Below, piece by piece: positions 2-11,355 of a stretch of 11,355 nt of DNA. Within the stretch, counting starts at the first letter, position 1; each line of letters begins with the position of its first letter. Source of the stretch: Fibrobacterales bacterium. Lineage in GTDB: Bacteria > Fibrobacterota > Fibrobacteria > Fibrobacterales > JAOPTW01. A program made the translations under genes and the position numbers. The notes under the pieces were generated by a model. The model was not told where the DNA came from. It was given only the letters and a program-made list of their open reading frames with translations, and searched no databases. The stretch spans positions 1 through 11,355 of the forward strand of contig JAOPTX010000074.1 in assembly GCA_051532055.1 (NCBI GenBank), in the 5' to 3' direction.

Positions 2-2665
2 ATCATTATAGCTTGTCTCAATTGCTTTAATTAATTGGGCTACTTTTTCATTTTTCTTTTCAACTACTTTATCCCACCACATAACGAGTGCATCAACGCC
101 ATCTTCAACCATATCGACCACATCATCACACGCTTCTTCAATTTTCATCAGTACAAATTCAGAACCATCCTGCATTGCTTCTATGCTGGTTACTGCAATA
201 TCAGTAAGTAGTTGTATTTGAGCCCGTACTATGAGTTGGTACACATCTCCGGTAATTTCTGCAATATACCGAAAATTGACGTTATTATAAATGTGCATAA
301 CAAAATAATAGGCCTCTTTAAAGGCTAATTCAAACCCATACCCCACAGACCCCCCAACTTTTAGGGTAACACCTGCTTTGAATTTTACTTGTACGCCATT
401 AAGGCCGAGTTGCACTTTAAGAGTAAGATTGGCGCCAATTCCTATACTGCCCTCTGCAAGCATATACAATTTACCTATGCTTTTCCATTTTTCGTCTGCA
501 GCCCAGTTAAATGTTTTGTTCCATTGAAACTGTCTGTAAATTTGTGCGGTACCTTTTATGCCCGCAAAGGCTTCTGCAGTAACATCAACTGAAGCAGGAA
601 AAGTATCACCCTCTTTGACGCCTTTACTTTTCGCGGTTTTCTCAGTTTCTTTAATGGTGTGGCCACCAGGTTTTGATGCTTTACCCATGGTTGTTTCAGG
701 TGAGGGGGGCATTGCTAATGCTTCTTGAAGTACATTTTTAGATTTAGGGATACCGATTTGTGCTTTCCCTTTAACACTTATTGATGCACCGACGGTTACT
801 CCGAGTGATAATCCAAATTCAAACCGAATTTTTAGGTTTCCTGTGGCAAATGCAGGGGGTTTTGGTGGTGTGATTTCCGTGACTTCTGGTCCTGCAAGTT
901 CAAACTCTATCCGTCGGTTTTCGAGATTGACTTTGTCGTCTTGAAACGCATCAACTTTAGGACTTGTTTCACCCCAAGCCTCTGTAGGGCGGGATAGGTG
1001 AAATTCAATATCTATACTTTTTGTTGCATCATAATCAAAATAGGTCATGGATGACCAGATATTTCCTTTGGCAGCGGTGTACATGGTGCCAGGAGTCCAG
1101 CGACTCAACTTTTCACACAGTTTGTCACGGTAGAGGTTAAAGACAATTTTCCAGAAGTCTTCATCAGCCTCGTTGTTTTCATTCACCATGGGTACGACTA
1201 AGAGCGGGCCGGGCAAGAGATTATTTTGTTTATAATATTTTTCATTATAATCCCTTTTCAGGTTTATTATTGCATCCTTAGTTTTTTGGCCCATTGTATT
1301 GTCGGCTTCGCCAGGGTGGTAGTCGCCATCAAACCATTTACATAGAGCAATAAGAGACTCCTGACAGTCATCCACACGACTTTTTTCGGTGGCAATTGAG
1401 GTCCAGGCGTCAACATTACCCTCGATGAGGGCTTTAACACAATCAGCACGTTTTTGTGAAAGAGCCTTATTGTAGGCTGCTGGGCCACTTCTATCAGTGT
1501 GTCCATGAATTACGAGCTTTCGGTCAAGGCCAGATTGTTGGTAACTTCTGTAGGCGGTTACCATTTTTACGATAGCGTCTATACAATTACCGGCTTCTGG
1601 GCTTATGGCGGGTACTGCTGAATCCAGATTAAATTTTATATTGTCAGTGAGTACTACATCTGACCATTTCTTTTGTTCTTCCAAGTAATTAGTGAGATTT
1701 TTCTTTAACTCTGCTGCGGTTTTTTGAGATTGTCTCAATAAATCAAAGAGATCAAACCCTTCTTCTACAGGCAGAAAGAACTTGGCGGTAAATTCATCTT
1801 CAATGAGGTTGTAGCCTACTTCACCACCACCTTCAAAACTCGCATTCATCTCCTTAACATTGATTTCGCCTTTAGCACTTGCTTTGGCAAAATAGCGACA
1901 CGTTTGTGCTTTGTTTGAAATGCGGTACCCACTACCGGTTTGCCCTTTATTGAAGTCACTTATAAACGCAAATTTCATTGGCCAATACTGAGAGTCATCT
2001 GTATCAGGGTTGCCGTCATCAAAAGGGTTCCACTCTTTGAGGTCAAACGCAATCTTCGCATCAAGGTTGAAACCATGGGCTTCTGATTCACGTTCTGAAC
2101 CTAGATTCTTTTTATTTTCAATGGTGAGCTTTAATGAGTCAATAATGCGTTTGCTTACACAGTCTTCACCTTCCTCGGCTTTTTCTTCCTTTACTTTCAG
2201 TATGGCAATATCGGCAAGCTCTGTATCTCGGACATACACCATGGTCTCAAAGCCGCGTTCTTTCCAGATAGGATGCTTTTTGAGGAGTACGAGTTCAACA
2301 ATTTTGGTATCTTCATTAGGAAATAAACGATTAACAAGGGAATCGGCATTCTTTGCTGCATCTTCTACTTGTTCATGAGGTTTTTTGTTTTTTATACTTT
2401 CACGATCAGCGAGTATGTCTTTATGAAATTCTTCCATGGCTTCAACTTCATTAAGGAACGCATCGCGGACGTCAGTTTCGGAGTCTTCAAAAACCCAGTA
2501 CTCTTTGTCACCGGGGCAATAGAAAATCATTGATTTGTCGGTACTGACGGTAATAGATTGCTGATGTTGGTTTTGGGGACCGGTTTTCGTTATCTTTATA
2601 CCATCAGTTACCAGTTTGCCCTGTGATACATATTGAGTGTTTGAATCTTGTGCTGCTGTAGTCAT
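2..2665 (-). CDS. Large protein (>=888 aa, 3' end beyond the window) with an internal OmpA-like domain, a degenerate PG-binding insert and Gly-rich beta-strand regions; possible secretion-system effector
   Basis: Manual translation: ATG at 2665 (MTTAAQDSNTQYVSQGKLV...) stays open to position 2 (...KAIETSYND). It has no stop in the window, which explains its absence from the ORF track. Motifs: KFNLDSAVP, VIHGHTDRSGPAAYNKALSQKRADCVKALI (GHTD 1493-1504), PGEADNTMGQKTKDAI, AWGETSP, NRRIEF (NRRIE 906-920). Starts 24 nt downstream of the 2690-4183 gene. Confidence 0.9.
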   Translation of the reverse strand, partial: MTTAAQDSNTQYVSQGKLVTDGIKITKTGPQNQHQQSITVSTDKSMIFYCPGDKEYWVFEDSETDVRDAFLNEVEAMEEFHKDILADRESIKNKKPHEQVEDAAKNADSLVNRLFPNEDTKIVELVLLKKHPIWKERGFETMVYVRDTELADIAILKVKEEKAEEGEDCVSKRIIDSLKLTIENKKNLGSERESEAHGFNLDAKIAFDLKEWNPFDDGNPDTDDSQYWPMKFAFISDFNKGQTGSGYRISNKAQTCRYFAKASAKGEINVKEMNASFEGGGEVGYNLIEDEFTAKFFLPVEEGFDLFDLLRQSQKTAAELKKNLTNYLEEQKKWSDVVLTDNIKFNLDSAVPAISPEAGNCIDAIVKMVTAYRSYQQSGLDRKLVIHGHTDRSGPAAYNKALSQKRADCVKALIEGNVDAWTSIATEKSRVDDCQESLIALCKWFDGDYHPGEADNTMGQKTKDAIINLKRDYNEKYYKQNNLLPGPLLVVPMVNENNEADEDFWKIVFNLYRDKLCEKLSRWTPGTMYTAAKGNIWSSMTYFDYDATKSIDIEFHLSRPTEAWGETSPKVDAFQDDKVNLENRRIEFELAGPEVTEITPPKPPAFATGNLKIRFEFGLSLGVTVGASISVKGKAQIGIPKSKNVLQEALAMPPSPETTMGKASKPGGHTIKETEKTAKSKGVKEGDTFPASVDVTAEAFAGIKGTAQIYRQFQWNKTFNWAADEKWKSIGKLYMLAEGSIGIGANLTLKVQLGLNGVQVKFKAGVTLKVGGSVGYGFELAFKEAYYFVMHIYNNVNFRYIAEITGDVYQLIVRAQIQLLTDIAVTSIEAMQDGSEFVLMKIEEACDDVVDMVEDGVDALVMWWDKVVEKKNEKVAQLIKAIETSYND

Positions 2666-2689
2666 AGTTTATCTCAAAGTATTTAAAAG

Positions 2690-4183
2690 TTACCCTTGTT
2701 CTACAAGGAAAAAGTCAAGTTCAGTGTGTGCACCAATGGCGATAGATGCTTTACCTTCATCATCCAGTTCGCCGGTAAGTTCAGAATTATCAGGGAGCAC
2801 TATCTTATAGGCATGCCCTACAAGAGCTGCATCATGTTGATCGGTAAGGAAGACATCGAGATAATTCTCGCCGTCACGGGTTACAATTGCCAGATGGACA
2901 ATGTCAGAAATATCCTGATTATAGCTGTCAAATGCTTCTATGTCTATTTGTGGCGCAGCTGCAGGTATTGTGGGTGGATTAGGTCGGTCGTGGAAATGGA
3001 TTTCAACACGGCGATTACTTTCTGACTCAAATCCATCTAAACCAATCTGATCGATGGGGCAGGATTCACCACAGGCCATAATACCTTCATTATCGGCAAA
3101 AAACCGCGGCGTTATTCTGGTGGGATCTGCTTCTGACGCCACAAGAGCGAGTTCATACAGGGTATGAGCAAATGCTCCCCACGTTGCCGGTCCAATAAGC
3201 CCATCTTCGGTAAGTGATCCTGAGTAGTGAGTGTTATACTCTTCTTGAAAGCTTTTTACACCCGCCTGAGTATTTTCTCCATCGGCTCCATCGACTGTTC
3301 CAGGATCGCAATTCCAACCATATGAAGCTGCCAATGATTGTAATATCGTTTGATAATCAGTGACAGTGCTGTGGCCTTCAATTGCACTTGTCCATATATC
3401 CTGATCATTCGATATGAGTGCTTTAACTGCTTGTGCTCTTTTTTCTGAGAGTGCAAGGTTATGATCGGGCTCACCACTGGTATCAGTATGACCGAAACAT
3501 ACTATTTCTTTATCGGGAAATTCGCTCATATGTTTAAATGCAGCGCTCAAAGCGGATACGACACTTCCTGTTGTATCGAGGCATGGCACAGCACTGTTTA
3601 GGTTAAATACAGAGTCAAGAACTTCCACTATCTCAATTAGTAGTGTTGCATTAGGGAGTTCTATTGCCTCGCTCGCTATTTCGGTACCATCATCATCACA
3701 TGTGGCGATAAAGGTATAAGAGACCTTATCAGCAGCTGTTTTGTTTTCGGTGAAATAAAAGCCTTGGTGTTGAGCGAGTGGTATACAGGCTGTAGCGATA
3801 CCATTTTCGGGGGTAACTGAAATAGGCGAACCGCGTTCCTCTTCATCATTATAGCGCGCAACCATTGTGAGTACAATGCCAGGAGTACGATCAGTGAGAT
3901 AGTTCACTTCTACAGACACCTCTGATTCTTCATCAATGCGTGCAGCTTCTGAATCGCTAAAAACTGGATTGGTAAAAGAAACCAACTGTTCTTGAACCGC
4001 TTCCTCTTCTTCAGGCTCCTGGTCAGTCTCTTCTTCAATTGGTTCTTCTTCCTGAACTGTGGCACTGGTGCTAGAGCTAAAATATCCACCACCACCTGAT
4101 TTCTGACTATAACGGTGGTCATTATTAAAAGTATCGTCAAGTTTTGAGTGGTCTAAACGGTTTTTTGAATCTGAAAATATCAT
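2690..4183 (-). CDS. OmpA-like domain protein with an inserted peptidoglycan-binding (PG_binding_1-like) domain, acidic N-terminal linker and short C-terminal beta domain
   Basis: 497 aa ORF. Motifs: FNLNSAVP, CFGHTDTSGEPDHNLALSEKRAQAVK (GHTD 3482-3493), DPGTVDGADGENTQAGVKSFQ...LTEDGLIGPATW (PG-binding signature), ACGESCP, NRRVEI (NRRVE 3002-3016), and C-terminal YKIVLPDNSELTGELDDEGKASI. No signal peptide seen. Confidence 0.9.
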   Translation of the reverse strand: MIFSDSKNRLDHSKLDDTFNNDHRYSQKSGGGGYFSSSTSATVQEEEPIEEETDQEPEEEEAVQEQLVSFTNPVFSDSEAARIDEESEVSVEVNYLTDRTPGIVLTMVARYNDEEERGSPISVTPENGIATACIPLAQHQGFYFTENKTAADKVSYTFIATCDDDGTEIASEAIELPNATLLIEIVEVLDSVFNLNSAVPCLDTTGSVVSALSAAFKHMSEFPDKEIVCFGHTDTSGEPDHNLALSEKRAQAVKALISNDQDIWTSAIEGHSTVTDYQTILQSLAASYGWNCDPGTVDGADGENTQAGVKSFQEEYNTHYSGSLTEDGLIGPATWGAFAHTLYELALVASEADPTRITPRFFADNEGIMACGESCPIDQIGLDGFESESNRRVEIHFHDRPNPPTIPAAAPQIDIEAFDSYNQDISDIVHLAIVTRDGENYLDVFLTDQHDAALVGHAYKIVLPDNSELTGELDDEGKASIAIGAHTELDFFLVEQG

Positions 4184-4496: not shown

Positions 4497-4677
4497 ATAC
4501 ATCTATTAGAGAAAGAGGGTACTGTTATTCAACAATACTGATATCCCATTGTTGATTTTCACCAGTATGTTGCGGTAGGAAATGAAAAAATATGAGTGTA
4601 ATTGCCTCATTTTGTCCGCAAATGTAATTTTCAATATAAGTTTAAGGCACACATACATACTGCTTTTGGGGACACGA

Positions 4678-6315
4678 ATGCATCAATTGTTAATACCGCG
4701 TATAGTCGCTGTTGTTTTTATTTCTATTTCACTTTTTCATTGCTCAACTGCTCTTGATGGAGATGATGCATCTCTGGTGAGTTCATCTACTGATGTTTCG
4801 GACTGCTCTTATGACTTTATATCGTATAGTCATTTATTGGGCGATGTTATTTCGAGCAGTGATGAGATGAGTAGTGAGTTAAGTTTTGATGAAGCATATT
4901 CTAGTAACGCTTTTGAAAATGAGGAGTTAAGTAGTTCTCTGGTGCTTCTTTCGTCTTCCTCAGAGATGGTAAGTAGTAGTGCGGTGAGTTCCTCTATAGG
5001 GCCATCAAGTAGCTCCCTGGTAGTTCTTTCATCTTCCTCAGAGATGGTAAGTAGTAGTGAGCCTGTAATGGTCTCTATGGTGCCTCCCCGGAGTTTTGTA
5101 GCAGATCAGCCGGGCAATATAAAAAATCAGGTCAGGGCGCAGCATCGTGCTTTTGATCAAACGCCGTTACAGTCAACGGGGTATTATGTGTTGGCCGGGG
5201 ATGTTATTACCGCTTCATACTCTTATACAGGGAGTGAGCCTACGGTGACTCCTCAGGTACTTATCCATGATATTTCTAATGAGAATGCTCTGTATACCAA
5301 TGAAGAATTTGTAACACTCTCTCAAGAGGGGACAACGGTTACTGCGGCTTATGATGGCATAGTCTATTTCTGTCTGTTTAATGAGCCTACTGATGGTGAG
5401 ATAACCTTAAACCTTGAGTCTGGCGGTAGGATTATGCCACGGTTTGTGTATAACTATCACCGTAATGAACATCTTGATACCATGATGGTTGAACATGCAG
5501 AGGCTCCTTGGGTTGAACTCGTGGGGAATTCTGCAATGGTCACGGCGACTATGGGGAGTTCGGTAACTCATATTGATGATCCAACTCATCTTATGGCTCT
5601 GTATGATACGATTATCGCGGCAGGTCAGGAGCAATACGGTATAAGCGAGGGTAAGGCCTATCCCCATGATCCAGTGAAACACAAATTTCATTTTGTAGAA
5701 ATTGCTCCTACTTCGAGCTATTATATGTTTTCATGGTTTTATCGTATGACTGCGAAACATACTGCCATTGAAAATTACCTCAATGCTGAATATATGAGAA
5801 CCAAAGCGTGGGGGATGTGGCACGAGTTTGGACATCAACTTCAAATGAAAACCTGGACATGGGAAGATCAAGTTGAGGTGACCGTAAATATTACTTCGGC
5901 CTATATTGAACAGTTATTAGGAAATGATTCACGATTTGAGAAGGATGGTCACTACGAAACAGTCTTTAATTATTTCAATCAAGGGAGTAAAAACTATCAG
6001 GATCTCGAGTTATTCCCTCGGGCCATTATGTTTTGGCAGTTGCGCCTCACTTTTGGAGACCCGTTTTATAAAACTATGGGCATGAATTATCGTAATTATG
6101 GTTTGGGTCCTTGGGATTATTCTGAGTCTGAGAAAAAACAGCAGTTCATTATTGAGGCAAGCCGTGTAGCAGGGTATGACCTTACGCCTTTCTTTGAACA
6201 GTGGGGTATTCCGGTTGAGTGGGCTACCAAGGCGACTTTAGCAGGTATGTCTCTGAAGGTATTAAGTGATCCTATTTGGCAAAATCGGGATACGAATATT
6301 TTGTATGTGTTGTAG
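4678..6315 (+). CDS. Lipoprotein M60-like (enhancin-related) zinc metallopeptidase with a Ser-rich linker
   Basis: WGMWHEFGHQLQ...WTWEDQVEVTVNI (HEFGH 5821-5835) fits the HExxH...E pattern of M60-like peptidases; N-terminal QSTGYY, APWVEL and C-terminal DLTPFFEQWG also fit. ATG 4678 is preferred over 4582 because GGGGA precedes it and it gives a lipoprotein-type signal (MHQLLIPRIVAVVFISISLFH-C). Confidence 0.85.
   Translation: MHQLLIPRIVAVVFISISLFHCSTALDGDDASLVSSSTDVSDCSYDFISYSHLLGDVISSSDEMSSELSFDEAYSSNAFENEELSSSLVLLSSSSEMVSSSAVSSSIGPSSSSLVVLSSSSEMVSSSEPVMVSMVPPRSFVADQPGNIKNQVRAQHRAFDQTPLQSTGYYVLAGDVITASYSYTGSEPTVTPQVLIHDISNENALYTNEEFVTLSQEGTTVTAAYDGIVYFCLFNEPTDGEITLNLESGGRIMPRFVYNYHRNEHLDTMMVEHAEAPWVELVGNSAMVTATMGSSVTHIDDPTHLMALYDTIIAAGQEQYGISEGKAYPHDPVKHKFHFVEIAPTSSYYMFSWFYRMTAKHTAIENYLNAEYMRTKAWGMWHEFGHQLQMKTWTWEDQVEVTVNITSAYIEQLLGNDSRFEKDGHYETVFNYFNQGSKNYQDLELFPRAIMFWQLRLTFGDPFYKTMGMNYRNYGLGPWDYSESEKKQQFIIEASRVAGYDLTPFFEQWGIPVEWATKATLAGMSLKVLSDPIWQNRDTNILYVL
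4929..5059 (+). repeat. Intragenic 53-bp direct repeat (period 78 bp) encoding the Ser-rich linker
   Basis: 4929-4981 vs 5007-5059 are 48/53 identical; both encode SSSLV[LV]LSSSSEMVSSS. Confidence 0.9.
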
Positions 6316-6498: not shown

Positions 6499-7716
6499 AT
6501 GTATAAGTTGTATATGTTGATTGTTTTTGTTCTCTTTCTCGGGTGCAATGGTGTGATAGATTCAGAGGTGGCTAATGAGTCGAGTGCCCAAAGAGGTTCA
6601 TCTGATAGTGAGGTGTTGGAAAAAGAAGTTGATAATGACATTGATGACAATTGTCGTGCATTTGATGTTGATGGTATTACTAAAGATGGGTACTGTTTTG
6701 ACAAATATCGATATGACTATGAAGATGATGATGTTCTGGGGTATGCCTTTACGGGAACTTCTTGCGATAAGGTGTACGGGTGTGAATGTGAGGGGAAGGA
6801 TTGCGATAAGCTATTTGAGAGTAAAGTAGCGTGTTTAAAAGAGTATCAAGGTGATTGTTACGACTCTTTTGAACGGGAATTTTGCATCCATAATGATAGA
6901 GATTATAACGTAGATCAAGTGATTAAATCAAATCATCGGTGTGCTGCAGATCTCTATTGTGATGAAGGTGGTGTCGTTAAGGAGTTGGATGATGTGGAGC
7001 CTTGTGTTACCTGTACCAATCCTGATGGACAAGAGTTTGCAATTGGAGCAAAATATACTGATAATTGTGTTATCTATACCTGCAATGATTCTGGTGAGTG
7101 GAATTCTGAAGAATTAGAACAACCAGTCTGTGGTCTCGATGGTGTTGAATATAAAAATAGCTGCTCTTTGGATTCACCGGCCCTCTATAAAGGCGCTTGT
7201 CAGTCAGAGATTAAGTTCACCGATTTACATTCTGTTAAGATCTATCACTTTGATGGTTCGGTACTATCATCTATTGAAGAAACAAATTCGAATAGGTCGA
7301 TAATAGCTCTAAAACAATCGGTGAGTGTGCAAATGCCACAATGTGAATATATTCAAACCCTTGAGTATGAATTTAACCATAAAGAGCGGGGGGTTACGGT
7401 AACCCTTGCAGAGGAATGTGAAGAAGACTCGGACTATAATGGTGAGGGTGGCTGGTCTACTTTTGATCAGTATGGTGCAGATGTCTATGAACGTTTTGTA
7501 AAGGCTTATGAGTGGGAATCTTTATTTTACTACAATACAAACTGTGATAACGATCTTGAATGTGTAAATAAAAATAGTGAATCTTTTGTTTTTTCCTTTA
7601 ACACTCACTCATCGTATGTGACTATTAATGCTGGATACAAGTTACATCAAAGTATGGTATTGCTTGGTGATCCCTTTTTAGATCTTTTTAATGAGTATCG
7701 AAAAGATCATAAATGA
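6499..7716 (+). CDS. Cys-rich lipoprotein with a Kazal-like motif
   Basis: 405 aa. Signal MYKLYMLIVFVLFLG-C, many Cys, and PVCGLDGVEYKNSC...YKGAC (7123-7200), which resembles the Kazal core PVCGxDGxTYxNxC. Confidence 0.8.
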   Translation: MYKLYMLIVFVLFLGCNGVIDSEVANESSAQRGSSDSEVLEKEVDNDIDDNCRAFDVDGITKDGYCFDKYRYDYEDDDVLGYAFTGTSCDKVYGCECEGKDCDKLFESKVACLKEYQGDCYDSFEREFCIHNDRDYNVDQVIKSNHRCAADLYCDEGGVVKELDDVEPCVTCTNPDGQEFAIGAKYTDNCVIYTCNDSGEWNSEELEQPVCGLDGVEYKNSCSLDSPALYKGACQSEIKFTDLHSVKIYHFDGSVLSSIEETNSNRSIIALKQSVSVQMPQCEYIQTLEYEFNHKERGVTVTLAEECEEDSDYNGEGGWSTFDQYGADVYERFVKAYEWESLFYYNTNCDNDLECVNKNSESFVFSFNTHSSYVTINAGYKLHQSMVLLGDPFLDLFNEYRKDHK

Positions 7717-7799: not shown

Positions 7800-8027
7800 T
7801 TTTGAGCCGCTTTTTGTTGCAGTAGTATAAATGAAAATAGATAGAGTGCCCAATATACAAGCTGTCTTAACTTCATCGTGCCCCTCTATACCTATGAATT
7901 CCGGGAAGGGCTCAAGTCGTGTTGATGATGAGCGTGATATTATAAGCTTTTTGTGGGAATTTGATACTCTAGAATTATATATGGTGGTATGTGCTGGTGA
8001 AATTGGTACTTTGTATGGTATAAGCTC

Positions 8028-8052
8028 ACCTTCTGTATATTAAGAGTTAACT
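8028..8052 (+). other. attI-like recombination site 1 (start of mini-array A)
   Basis: ACCTTCTGTATATTAAGAG|TTAACT. GTTAACTGC (8046-8054) is the exact complement of GCAGTTAAC (8601-8609) at the start of the next attC. No upstream attC left arm is visible. 21/22 identical to 10481-10502. Confidence 0.7.
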
Positions 8053-8062
8053 GCGACCTAGA

Positions 8063-8584
8063 ATGAAAATCACACTCCAAGTAATTATTTTTCTTTCCAC
8101 TGTAATAATAGGCTGTTCCACTCAAATGGATGATCATAACCCAGAACCAACACCATGTAAAACTGGGCAAATATCTCATTTTCCAGAATTACTTGGGTGT
8201 TGGCATGCTCTGGATACTTTATACAACTATACGGATTCCTTACACTCATATGAATATTGTCAAACCTTGTGTTATTGCTCAGATAATTCTATGTACGAAC
8301 AATCTCCAATGGTTAATGATACAGGGATAGTTATGCAGGTATTAAGTTCTGGCTACATTGACTCCATATCCCAAAATTCATACTTATATAATTACACAAG
8401 AAATTTAACAATCAAAAATACTAGTCCTGACACGTTATATCAAGACACAACACAGTTTCAAATTACCAATACTGCCTTAACATTGCATACAAAACGAACA
8501 ACTTATTATCAACAGAACAACTTTTCAAGTCCTCTTTGCGAAGATCCAAACACATTTTTCGACAAAAATTTCAATACTAATTAA
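8063..8584 (+). CDS. Cassette 1: hypothetical lipoprotein
   Basis: 173 aa with signal MKITLQVIIFLSTVIIG-C; bounded by GTTAACT (8046) and attC1. Confidence 0.8.
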   Translation: MKITLQVIIFLSTVIIGCSTQMDDHNPEPTPCKTGQISHFPELLGCWHALDTLYNYTDSLHSYEYCQTLCYCSDNSMYEQSPMVNDTGIVMQVLSSGYIDSISQNSYLYNYTRNLTIKNTSPDTLYQDTTQFQITNTALTLHTKRTTYYQQNNFSSPLCEDPNTFFDKNFNTN

Positions 8585-8602
8585 GAAGACGGAAACTGCA
8601 GC

Positions 8603-8722
8603 AGTTAACAAACCGTTGCAGACGGTAATCTTCACTTCAAAAACAATTAATTAAACTCCCTCCGGTCAAACAATAATTAATTATTTTTAAAGCAAAGCTT
8701 CCGCTGAACTCAACCGTTATTT
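8603..8722 (+). repeat. attC site 1 (120 bp)
   Basis: R'' AGTTAAC (8603-8609), spacer AAACC, L'' arm GTT(G)CAG(A)CGG pairing with CCGCTGAAC leaving two extrahelical bases, AT-rich inner stem, R' GTTATTT (8716-8722). Confidence 0.9.
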
Positions 8723-8727
8723 TGCTT

Positions 8728-9168
8728 ATGAAACATCTGTTCATGATTCTTTTTTTCATCACCTTAACCAGTTGCGACTGTGTAACTACTAGTAGTTTTC
8801 ACATTCAGCTTTCGATATTTGATCAAAATGGCAACCCTATTAATGGTGCTACAATAAAGTTAAGTGAATACCAAAGGGATATTGAAAAAGACACCATTAT
8901 AGAGTTTTCAAATATTGACAGTTATTTTTATGACGAATTTCAAAGTGATTCATCAGGGATGATTTCTGCCAATTTGTCCGCTCAAACCGCAAAAAACTGT
9001 CCAAGTGTTACTGAAAATAACTCATCACTATTTGTTTTATCTGTTGCAATCAAGTGCTCGAACAATAAATGGCTTATACATGAATATAAAAACGGAACAG
9101 ATATGGAATATATTAACAATTCTAATATCATTGATTCTATTTATATTGATTCAGAATGCTTATATTAG
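8728..9168 (+). CDS. Cassette 2: hypothetical lipoprotein with a prealbumin/carboxypeptidase-regulatory-like beta motif
   Basis: ATG 8728 is preferred because TTG 8722 overlaps the attC R' box. Signal MKHLFMILFFITLTS-C; motif IFDQNGNPINGATIKL...SDSSG. Confidence 0.78.
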   Translation: MKHLFMILFFITLTSCDCVTTSSFHIQLSIFDQNGNPINGATIKLSEYQRDIEKDTIIEFSNIDSYFYDEFQSDSSGMISANLSAQTAKNCPSVTENNSSLFVLSVAIKCSNNKWLIHEYKNGTDMEYINNSNIIDSIYIDSECLY

Positions 9169-9182
9169 GATTTACGTACACA

Positions 9183-9300
9183 AAATAACAAACTGTGGAG
9201 TCGGAATGTCCACTGCATTTTAAAAATAATTTACTCCCTTCGGTCAAACAATAATTATTATTAAAACACCGCGGCCTTCCGCTCAACTCAACCGATATCT
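9183..9300 (+). repeat. attC site 2 (118 bp), degenerate
   Basis: R'' AAATAAC (9183-9189) and 3' arm CCGCTCAACTCAACC. Shares ACTCCCTYCGGTCAAACAATAATTA with attC1. R' reads GATATCT (9294-9300) instead of GTTATCT, and the L'' arm is 1 nt shorter than in attC1 and attC3. Confidence 0.85.
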
Positions 9301-9387
9301 GGGGTCTGATGACAGAAGCTCTGTGTTTTTACCACCAAATCAACCAAAATTACACCATTTTTTATAAACTATATTAGAATAATTATG

Positions 9388-9428
9388 AATACAAACGAAT
9401 AAAATGTATTTTGTAGTAAAACTGAGGA
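9388..9428 (+). promoter_or_regulatory. Putative TA promoter/operator and RBS
   Basis: Inverted repeat AATACA (9388-9393) / TGTATT (9405-9410) overlaps a -10-like TAAAAT (9400-9405); RBS GAGGA at 9424-9428. TA cassettes typically carry their own autoregulated promoter. Confidence 0.45.
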
Positions 9429-9432
9429 AATT

Positions 9433-9675
9433 ATGTCTAAAACCATTACGATTCGTTTAGAAGAAGAGAAGTACGAGCTGTTTAAAAAGTTTGCAGAAAT
9501 GGACAATAGAGCCATTTCAAATTTCATAGAAACTGCGACTTCCAGATATATAGAAGAAATTGAATACGCTGACGAGTTTGAAATGGCTGAAATTAATTCC
9601 AACGAAGACTTACAAAAATCATTAAAACGCGGACGTACTGATGTAAAGAAAGACAGGAGACGTCGCATTGCCTAA
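9433..9675 (+). CDS. Cassette 3: type II antitoxin, ribbon-helix-helix (CopG-like)
   Basis: 80 aa. MSKTITIRLEEEKYELFKKFAEMDNRAISNFIE is an RHH pattern followed by an acidic segment. Has an RBS and overlaps the toxin gene by 8 nt. Confidence 0.88.
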   Translation: MSKTITIRLEEEKYELFKKFAEMDNRAISNFIETATSRYIEEIEYADEFEMAEINSNEDLQKSLKRGRTDVKKDRRRRIA

Positions 9676-9946
9676 ATATGATGTCTTCATTGCCCACGAA
9701 TATGATAAACAGCTAAAGAAAATTACAAAAAATGATAAAGCTTTAATTGAGAAGAAAATGAAAGAATATATAATTCCTCAATTAAAGTCTGAACCTCATT
9801 TTGGATCAAATATTAAAAAGCTTAAAAATTATGATCCTCCTACTTGGCGATACAGAATTGGTAAATACAGAGTTTTTTATGAAATCGATTCTGAGAGGAA
9901 TGAAATTGATGTTCTAACTATCTCACAACGGAAAGATGCGTACTAG
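9668..9946 (+). CDS. relE: Cassette 3: type II toxin, RelE/ParE family
   Basis: 92 aa basic protein with TTG start; IKKLKN...WRYRIGKYRVFYEID...VLTISQRKDAY is a typical RelE signature. Confidence 0.9.
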   Translation: MPKYDVFIAHEYDKQLKKITKNDKALIEKKMKEYIIPQLKSEPHFGSNIKKLKNYDPPTWRYRIGKYRVFYEIDSERNEIDVLTISQRKDAY

Positions 9947-9958
9947 ATGAAGCGCCCC

Positions 9959-9997
9959 AGATAACATCTATACGCCCTCTCCAAGTCACGTAAAAAA
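9959..9997 (+). repeat. Non-attC array-terminal motif, copy 1
   Basis: AGATAACATCTATACGCCCTCTCCAAGTCACGTAAAAAA; 9961-9997 aligns to 11316-11351 at 32/37 columns. It begins at the R'' of the TA cassette but lacks the attC L''/L' arms. Confidence 0.75.
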
Positions 9998-10052
9998 ATG
10001 ATTCACCGCAATTTGTTATACTCAACTTCTCACTTCCGCTCATCCCCATTAA

Positions 10053-10286
10053 TCACCCAATCCGATTCTTTCGCTTCAAATATTGTTTCCTACCATAGTC
10101 ACTATTAAATTGTTTGCGGATACTTGGGGCGTTGCAAAAGGTAATATCGGCCCAGTCACCGGGGGCTATCAGTAGGTTTATGATCTGGTCTCGGATGCTT
10201 TTATTCTCTTTCATCTGTATGATGGCAAAGTGAACGGTGGCCTCGAGGCTAGAGATTTCGTTGACGAGGGGTGATGACCATTCCAT
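10053..10286 (-). CDS. Small hypothetical ORF in the inter-array spacer
   Basis: 77 aa with no recognisable family and no well-spaced RBS (GGAGGAG lies 24 nt upstream); may be a fragment. Confidence 0.3.
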   Translation of the reverse strand: MEWSSPLVNEISSLEATVHFAIIQMKENKSIRDQIINLLIAPGDWADITFCNAPSIRKQFNSDYGRKQYLKRKNRIG

Positions 10287-10480
10287 GCTTCTGTTTTAAG
10301 TACCCGAGTACTCCTCCGGAAATGGTGTTTATAATGTAAAGGGAATTATAAGGTGGTCGGTATAATGCCATTATTTGGTATTATCCATTGGAAATGGTTT
10401 AATTCAATTGGAATGAGTGTTCTAAAGTGGGGAAGGGTACTGGATTATTTGGAAATTGCTAGATTATTTATCATAAACCA

Positions 10481-10505
10481 ACCTTCTGTATAATAAGAGT
10501 TATCT
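10481..10505 (+). other. attI-like recombination site 2 (start of mini-array B)
   Basis: ACCTTCTGTATAATAAGAG|TTATCT. GTTATCTGGC (10499-10508) complements GCCAGATAAC (10877-10886). Ungapped similarity to site 1 extends upstream (10452-10483 vs 7999-8030, 21/32). Confidence 0.7.
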
Positions 10506-10509
10506 GGCC

Positions 10510-10854
10510 ATGTGCACATATTTTAAATTTATCACACGTAGCAAACCACCTGAAAAAAGTAGTTTTATTATAGACTCACTTATAAAAGTTGCATCGTTTA
10601 TTTTTCCACAGGCAAACCCTGACTATGATGATAAAATCGGTAATGTATCTTATTGGTTTATTGAATGTGGCGATGAAGGATATCCATATCGTGAAATTGG
10701 TTTTGATGCAAATGACAACATTTTGTTTAAAGGTCCGAACAAACGTAATTATGGATATTGGTTAGACACAGATATGACAGATGATCATTTTGAAAACCAT
10801 AAAGATTGTGAGGAAATTTCTGGAAAAACATTTGAAGACATGTGGAACAAATAA
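10510..10854 (+). CDS. Cassette 4: hypothetical protein
   Basis: 114 aa ORF filling the cassette; aromatic/acidic motifs NPDYD...YWFIE...PYREIGFD...NYGYWLD; function unknown. Confidence 0.82.
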   Translation: MCTYFKFITRSKPPEKSSFIIDSLIKVASFIFPQANPDYDDKIGNVSYWFIECGDEGYPYREIGFDANDNILFKGPNKRNYGYWLDTDMTDDHFENHKDCEEISGKTFEDMWNK

Positions 10855-10879
10855 CCCTTTTTCGTTTCGATAAACAGCC

Positions 10880-10996
10880 AGATAACAAACCGTTTGAGTC
10901 GGTAATTGCAAATGCCCACAAAATAGATATTCGCGATCCGCTCCAATTTATCTATTTTGTGGACATCAGCAATTCCGCTCAACTCAACCGTTATAT
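10880..10996 (+). repeat. attC site 3 (117 bp)
   Basis: R'' AGATAAC; L'' arm GTT(T)GAG(T)CGG pairing with CCGCTCAAC; perfect 14-bp inner stem CCACAAAATAGATA (10916-10929) / TATCTATTTTGTGG (10949-10962); R' GTTATAT (10990-10996). Confidence 0.92.
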
Positions 10997-11019
10997 TGGG
11001 TGTGTCACGTAGAAGTATC

Positions 11020-11229
11020 TTATAGCGATGAATCTGTCAGATAAATTATTATGAAACCTATAAATATCAGAAATGGCATTATCATCATAGCAAATAATCG
11101 CTGCCTAGAATGCCATGATAAAACATCATCACCATTATGAAGTTTACTTTTATGAATTCTATATGCTACAATTGCTAGGATAATTGAAACTGCCTGAAAG
11201 CCGAAGTACCCAACAAATACCATTTTCAT
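11020..11229 (-). CDS. Cassette 5: small membrane protein (2 hydrophobic segments), reverse orientation
   Basis: 69 aa with two hydrophobic stretches separated by a polar loop; the only sizeable ORF between G10990 and C11320. Confidence 0.6.
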   Translation of the reverse strand: MKMVFVGYFGFQAVSIILAIVAYRIHKSKLHNGDDVLSWHSRQRLFAMMIMPFLIFIGFIIIYLTDSSL

Positions 11230-11313
11230 ACCGTGATTAAAGACTTTTCAAATAATTTAGTAATCAATATACTTCTTAGCACGCAGGAAATGATGTTGTT
11301 TGAGAAAGGCCCA

Positions 11314-11351
11314 ATATAACATCTAGATGTCCTCCCAAGTCAAGTAAAAAA
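11314..11351 (+). repeat. Non-attC array-terminal motif, copy 2
   Basis: ATATAACATCTAGATGTCCTCCCAAGTCAAGTAAAAAA. CCCAATATAAC (11310-11320) is the exact complement of GTTATATTGGG (10990-11000). The window ends 4 nt later. Confidence 0.72.
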
Positions 11352-11355
11352 TAGT

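Follow-up and report, generated by a model that had tools for sequence, protein, structure and literature searches.

We found that the sequence following the R'' box of two terminal cassettes in a Fibrobacterales genome is, with a probability of about 0.92, the right end of an attC-targeting insertion sequence (IS) of the IS110 family with an IS1111-like layout, lying on the strand opposite to the cassettes. Two copies occur in the window, that is, the whole stretch of 11,355 nucleotides analysed here; this stretch spans contig C74 of a 5.17-Mb draft genome from one end to the other and so stops at an assembly break. To judge from its sequence, copy 1 is a stump, which would have stayed behind when the bulk of the element was lost along with the rest of attC. 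The finding is mostly ordinary, namely the debris of an attC-targeting IS. Targeting of attC by IS is already known; here a separate lineage is involved, and its leftover ends are joined to many different cassettes.

Cassette modules of the window and the element on contig C119

From position 8046 onward the window carries two cassette modules, headed by attI-like sites with G|TT at 8046 and 10499. Each module has complete attCs between cassettes, and its last cassette has an R'' box without the attC interior (9965 and 11320). The features are as follows.

7992..8048, + strand: integrase-less attI-like site, head of module 1; crossover G8046|TT; profile built from five such sites including this one
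8046..8609, + strand: cassette 1, ORF 8063-8584 without Pfam match
8602..8722, + strand: complete attC 1; attC profile (of which it is itself a seed) and bottom-strand hairpin
8716..9189, + strand: cassette 2, ORF 8722-9168
9184..9300, + strand: complete attC 2, GAT core at 9294
9294..9965, + strand: cassette 3, toxin-antitoxin (TA), R'' box at its end; Pfam, 83% copy on contig C130
9965..9966, - strand: two-base core, TG on the element strand, common to target and element; same TG at both ends of the C119 element
9967..10034, - strand: decayed IS right-end stump, copy 1; aligned with the right end of C119 at 82.7% over 75 nt (E 2e-12)
10041..10508, + strand: linker tail into the second attI-like site; repeated in congener G001
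10445..10501, + strand: integrase-less attI-like site, head of module 2; crossover G10499|TT
10499..10886, + strand: cassette 4, ORF 10510-10854
10879..10996, + strand: complete attC 3; attC profile and hairpin
10990..11320, + strand: cassette 5, R'' box at its end; start and end complementary (9/9)
11322..11355, - strand: IS right end, copy 2, stopping where the contig stops, either a full element or a longer stump; aligned with the right end of C119 at 94.9% over 39 nt (E 1e-9)

Cassette 3 encodes, by Pfam, a DUF6290 antitoxin-like protein (9433-9675) and a ParE-family protein (9668-9946). The GAT core of attC 2 (9294-9296) is a non-canonical crossover triplet ahead of this cassette and reads GCT in the C130 copy. 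The final bases of the first attI-like site are those of the attI that accompanies an intact intI on contig C108 of the same genome; a Xer/dif-like reading of the left sites was dropped by eye because they align with this intI-adjacent attI. At least seven integrase-less attI-like sites are present in the genome (window, C57, C30, C31, C82 and C72), with about three upstream variants and one to three cassettes each, and they are more numerous and often tandem in the congener G001. Very short attC variants (about 36-65 bp) occur beside the 120-bp family (C57 1968-2000, C30 ~39900, C45 818-870, C100 706-770), and another lies at locus L148 ~3010-3050. Upstream of the modules the window holds genes at 2-4183 (minus strand), 4582-6315 and 6499-7716. 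Among them are two of OmpA-like/peptidoglycan-binding type (Pfam confirms the second), one for an M60-family peptidase in which a serine-rich stretch of 78 bp is duplicated, and a lipoprotein-like gene that is rich in cysteine and has a Kazal domain.

Both terminal cassettes retain R'', as the preliminary description of this DNA had stated: CCCCAGATAAC at 9955-9965 and CCCAATATAAC at 11310-11320. These boxes are the cassettes' own, being near-perfect complements of the starts at 9294 (8/9) and 10990 (9/9). That description placed a switch to ATCTA directly after R''. At both sites ATCTA does stand in place of the attC interior, but the first A after TAAC also occurs in true attCs, and the departure from attC begins one base later than claimed, at 9967 and 11322. 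The motif is also longer than first described, copy 1 reaching ~10034 and copy 2 the contig end at 11355. When aligned with a single gap, the copies agree at 37 of 43 bases (BLAST, 84% over 44 nt), far above chance.

On the bottom strand the motif had been taken for an attI simple site, from a geometry of seven bases, a five-base spacer and GTT. Such geometry is no test of attI identity, and of the 12 bases that precede GTT only 2-4 agree with real attI or with the window's two attI-like sites. A scan of the whole genome gave a third copy on the 1,680-bp contig C119. Here the R'' ahead of the motif belongs to a different cassette, and the motif leads into a gene of 348 aa on the opposite strand, with transposase domains PF01548 (E 1e-12) and PF02371 (E 2e-20), both above cut-off. 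Past the 5' end of the transposase gene come an inverted repeat of the motif and then an attC remainder. The element measures 1,554 bp, with a left end of 68 bp, a right end of 437 bp and TG at both junctions, and it splits attC at the same base as the motif in the window. It lies antisense to the cassette array, and its TG core consists of the last R'' base and the next one; therefore the cassette keeps R'' followed by the right end of the element, and the rest of attC lies past the left end. The subterminal inverted repeat is perfect over 10 bp, 8 and 4 bp inside the TG cores.

The origin first proposed, in which IntI recombined the top strand of an attC, at R'', with an inverted attI-like simple site that would be the motif itself, is highly improbable in this light. 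Its crossover point would look alike (G|TT, bottom strand), the genome has an intact intI, and top-strand recombination does occur at low rates (PMC5027507). Nevertheless, the motif ends a transposase-bearing element with a matching left junction and resembles real attI at only 2-4 of 12 bases, and top-strand events are given in the same source as 1,000-10,000 times rarer, with no inverted cassettes in nature. As the origin of the motif, an inverted attI is refuted by the C119 element and its left junction. Two further explanations, misassembly and a terminus of a group IIC-attC intron, have a chance close to negligible. Copy 2 does lie at a contig end, and such introns likewise insert antisense into attC (PMC3001079), but copy 1 is internal to its contig and is spanned by a 741-nt contig of a sequencing run that is possibly the source of the assembly, and the C119 ORF encodes a DEDD transposase and not a reverse transcriptase. 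Both explanations are refuted by the C119 sequence together with the many internal copies in a second genome. No Rfam match was found in C119 or the window.

Copy 1 is a decayed stretch of 69 bp with a subterminal repeat at ~9971-9980, a decayed -35 box and part of the terminal hairpin; it follows the C119 right end over 75 nt and then diverges, and its inverted repeat is damaged. Copy 2 has two mismatches in the inverted repeat, and a contig of the possible source run stops at 11355 as well. At the ends of three contigs (C157, C31 and C32) a left-end junction adjoins an attC remainder, and three contigs (C157, C108 and C74) end at a right-end junction. From this pattern, about three long copies were probably collapsed by the assembly into C119, copy 2 possibly among them.

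The expectation that the last cassette of a module is immobilised was borne out: since its attC is lost, excision by the normal attC route is closed. It also proved right that the motif marks module ends. The same cassette with a complete attC had been proposed as a check, and the 83% copy of the TA cassette on C130 is indeed followed by a whole attC, yet its R'' reads TAAA. A low-depth contig of the sequencing run that may underlie the assembly joins a variant of the TA cassette to attC sequence, with the joint at 9966. Nothing from an RNA run aligned to the window, an outcome that carries no weight as evidence.

A hairpin lies just inside the right end (C119 1540-1587; window 9983-10028; z -2.7), is kept by stumps of at least ~70 bp, and could terminate cassette transcription. 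On the 1.5-kb contig C157 an IS left end and a right end enclose two cassettes; either the IS inserted twice, into adjacent attCs, or the contig represents a circle that joins the IS to two cassettes. At C30 32839-32577 an internal transposase fragment is fused to the 3' part of an attC, and this is the sole left-side relic seen.

Family placement, targets and guide-like segments

The IS1111-attC group (ISPa21, ISPst6, ISKpn4, ISUnCu1 and ISPa25) was reportedly treated by Tetu and Holmes in 2008 and by Post and Hall in 2009. Its members insert near the 5' end of attC in antisense, as outlined in PMC3001079, may immobilise cassettes according to PMC11616780, and have their guide RNA 3' of tnp in the accounts of PMC11187229 and PMC11208160. 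The C119 element agrees with the target described in PMC3001079, the 5' end of attC in antisense, and is like this group in its long non-coding region downstream of tnp with guide-like segments, a feature of IS1111, in having subterminal repeats and in the supposed immobilisation of cassettes. For canonical IS1111 elements these repeats are given as 11-13 bp, 7 and 3 bp from the ends (PMC11187229), or 7-17 bp (PMC11208160); the repeat of C119, 8 and 4 bp in, departs from the canonical spacing. Membership of the broad IS110 family follows from the DEDD/RuvC and Transposase_20 domains and from the mode of insertion, which is specific in site and orientation, uses a short core and leaves no long duplication of the target.

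In contrast, full-length relatedness to IS1111 is lacking. The transposase is 23.6% and 20.5% identical to two IS1111-type proteins and is parted from IS1111-type by a long branch in a 16-row tree with only two IS1111-type rows. ISKpn4 and ISPa25 have the GL-P----S(t)G type of transposase, whereas that of C119 carries GIDLH and RLVxCxxESAG and no GL-P----S(t)G. The same diagnostic motifs run, by eye, along the proteins of the cluster of ISGsu4, ISGsu5, ISShfr7 and ISShwo5 and of ISMahy12 (supplement of PMC11187229). In the supplement table of PMC11208160, ISKpn4/ISPa21/ISPa25 and ISGsu4 stand in separate clusters and ISMahy12 is absent. It is these published clusters and the different motifs that set C119 apart from the ISPa21/ISPst6/ISKpn4 clade. 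On this sequence comparison its transposase would belong to a distant ISGsu4-like cluster and not to the IS1111-attC group. A search by name found no paper on the target of the ISGsu4/ISMahy12-type cluster, subscription papers being mostly outside its scope; ISfinder pages may note a target.

Searches gave 63 related loci. Automatic finding of ends by inverted repeats failed or chose wrong pairs in many relatives, and both ends were set by hand for 24 of them, which with C119 makes 25 elements; all of these ends were set with a TG core, and the TG feature is therefore partly built in. TAAC stands at the target in the same register in 17 of the 25, of which 15 form one close gammaproteobacterial group and the others are the C119 element and a Lentisphaerae one. 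Once rebuilt, the targets of eight of the 25 form an attC-like hairpin (70-116 nt, -13.7 to -21.1 kcal/mol), whereas four elements target unrelated sites. Relatives of 45-49% identity in Alteromonadales and in Vibrio plasmids sit in attC at the same base. The hosts in which R'' is targeted are far apart (this genome, Alteromonadales, Vibrio and a Lentisphaerae genome), and since a lineage only ~20-24% identical to the compared IS1111-type transposases also hits attC R'', attC targeting arose more than once. Arrays broken by such IS would escape attC-based annotation. A more distant relative (29% identity; L066, L067, L070, L074 and L075) has a C-terminal extension and a different 3' region, and lies at the R'' of attC-like sites.

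The 3' non-coding regions hold three kinds of segment. The first ends in C, stands before TG[GAT] and corresponds to the right target in reverse complement; the second ends in TG, stands before A[AT]T[AG]G and corresponds to the left target; the third lies further on and corresponds to the left donor. Cognate pairs beat permuted ones with p of 1e-4, 5e-5 and 3e-4 among 15 elements, kin among them not being independent, and 2e-3, 2e-5 and 3e-3 among nine groups, values that are optimistic because the anchors were chosen after the sequences had been inspected. Two elements aimed at other sites have guide matches of 8 bases. The target matches of the C119 element itself are short, 4 bases by strict count and 5 of 6 for the left guide.

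The guide halves of C119 face each other in two predicted internal loops, which are followed by a donor loop (z -3.3, -2.1 and -1.5); the donor-loop fold is weak, 15 of 200 shuffles being as stable. By the motif list, two target-type pairs are present in 9 of the 15 elements. The predicted RNA thus appears to have two target-type loops and one donor loop. These are seen at C119 1167-1487, and attC-targeting relatives mostly have two target-type loops as well. IS621, ISEc11 and CazIS110-1, recombinases with a bridge or seek RNA, resemble the scheme predicted here in the two-base core, in the placement of the guides for target and donor within internal loops, and in the junction promoter; their RNAs as described have one target loop, whereas the C119-type element apparently has two. 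No mention of two target-binding loops was found in the literature searched, in which subscription papers were mostly outside scope. An apparent pair of target loops is a natural design of interest for bridge recombinases. Judging from known IS110/IS1111 biology, the element would excise as a circle whose end junction would form a promoter (read by eye as TTGACT, 17 bp, GATATT). The same biology, together with the covariation, suggests that the DEDD recombinase would be guided to R'' by a bridge/seek RNA encoded in the 3' region.

Right-end stumps, linkers and cassette turnover

Right-end sequence occurs in two of the 61 genomes searched, this one and the congener G001. At least 29 matches to the C119 contig were found in G001, 28 of them at the right end of the element (40 of 48 candidates scored), and a whole-genome search of G001 (91% complete) found no left end and no transposase. 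Junctions were collected over the whole of this genome and, in G001, over 134,645 fetched bases. Of 38 candidates, 35 remained once a duplicate and two chance hits had been removed. The right end follows TAAC in 24 of these and TACC in 4 more, and a complementary cassette start was found for 22 of the 35, a count with no chance control and with some wrong partners.

Twenty of the 35 junctions fall into five classes, each with a common breakpoint and tail. Their stumps measure ~34, 80, 147, 69 and 70 bp, in 5, 4, 5, 3 and 3 copies; the ~70-bp class, which includes copy 1 of the window, was judged by eye. Members of a class are joined at the same base to unrelated cassettes, and only one pair has a common upstream 350 nt or cassette. 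Many units of stump and tail lead to integrase-less attI copies; some tails end instead in a short attC remainder or in the end of another element. On contigs C11 and C31 of G001 a unit made up of attI-like site, cassette, R'', stump and tail is repeated in tandem, and the tail of the window with its attI recurs at three places in G001 (83-84% over ~470 bp). The linker tail holds the 3' fragment of a paralogous gene (10068-10268, minus strand; tblastn, 65% over 71 aa), and three full-length paralogues gave no Pfam match. This 263-aa family without Pfam match lies repeatedly beside stumps and attI-like sites (C3, C72 and C110 of this genome; L130, L131 and L143). No intI remnants were found in the linkers by tblastn.

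A possible explanation of how the linkers reached different cassettes is that, after a new cassette had been captured, a fresh IS insertion into its attC would be followed by deletion between the new and old right ends. Among the routes considered, we favour that the linkers mostly arose in this way, by insertion and deletion between direct repeats, at somewhat less than even odds. Against it, class A offers just 34 bp of homology, and within each class the stump has diverged to the same degree as the tail (0.83-0.87 vs 0.83-0.89); there is therefore no sign that stumps were refreshed by new insertion.

We consider it rather unlikely, as a second route, that a bridge recombinase acting in trans moved an existing right junction onto the R'' of another attC. 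The junction would be of the type left-donor, core, right-target, and the terminal cassette would be swapped, the old one being releasable with a rebuilt attC. Such one-ended transfer would account for the five classes with common breakpoints (20 of the 35 junctions) and unrelated cassettes at the same base, and equal divergence of stump and tail is what one inherited unit would give. In agreement, an orthologous slot shared by contig C57 of this genome and contig C31 of G001 is 86% identical up to the attI crossover and 94% over 2,083 bp from the R''-stump junction, with unrelated contents of 760 and 646 nt. One-ended transfer has so far been described only in laboratory systems, in two recent preprints: exactly this junction type was moved to a new target in another IS110 element (bioRxiv 10.1101/2025.10.25.684509), and half-match reactions are reported for IS621 (bioRxiv 10.64898/2026.08.31.748434). 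The linkers and the swapped slot are in this respect a natural test of it.

The precedents, however, come from preprints and concern distant elements, the deletion route would lead to an identical outcome, and the inverted repeat of copy 1 is damaged. Moreover, bases near the junction are no better conserved. Stumps carry ~12% changes, mostly private as in neutral decay, and the first 16 bases are not spared, mismatch being 0.12 and 0.105 in bases 1-16 vs 0.16, 0.13 and 0.07 further in (18 stumps, in a test biased to distal matches by a 69-nt length filter).

With the odds clearly against it, orphan right ends could also be reusable docking sites, with a bridge recombinase at R'' and IntI at solo attI copies making up a dispersed two-enzyme system of cassette exchange. 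Were this so, the last cassette of each slot would need no attC, and an RNA with two target loops would broaden the range of attCs recognised. A small remnant of the idea first put forward may lie here: the junction may serve again in the exchange of cassettes, with the IS recombinase a more plausible agent than IntI, whose part as a secondary user of existing stumps has a slim chance. It is improbable that the linkers are non-autonomous mini-elements with attI, transposed whole into attC and later deprived of their left ends by attI x attC excision. This would explain the duplication of stump and tail, the precise R'' junctions and the lost attC remainders in one scheme, but no left end was found downstream of attI in the 134,645 fetched bases or in the whole-genome search of G001, and not all tails lead to attI. 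Other routes by which old stumps came to lie behind new cassettes are, taken together, decidedly improbable.

The dispersal of attI copies would most simply be due to IntI acting on attI-bounded cassettes, by analogy with class 1 integrons, where such cassettes are described as functional IntI substrates (PMC12901181). At another locus of G001, ~3.75 kb of extra units fit precisely between two G|TT points, the outcome to be expected of attI x attI recombination. The attI-type and delta-attI-type cassettes of PMC12901181 are likewise bounded by attI instead of attC and are substrates of IntI, and arrays far from intI are common among the CALINs of PMC4889954. Unlike both, the present arrays are chromosomal and have near-full attI copies with upstream DNA, which are tandem-amplified and coupled to IS right ends.

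The end of a second element abuts cassette starts at G|TT in three places (C31 of this genome ~60250-59830, L130 ~4560 and L131). Another element thus seems to strike the R' side of attC, and the transposase fragment beside this end is one that we take, from its looks, to be IS1182-like.
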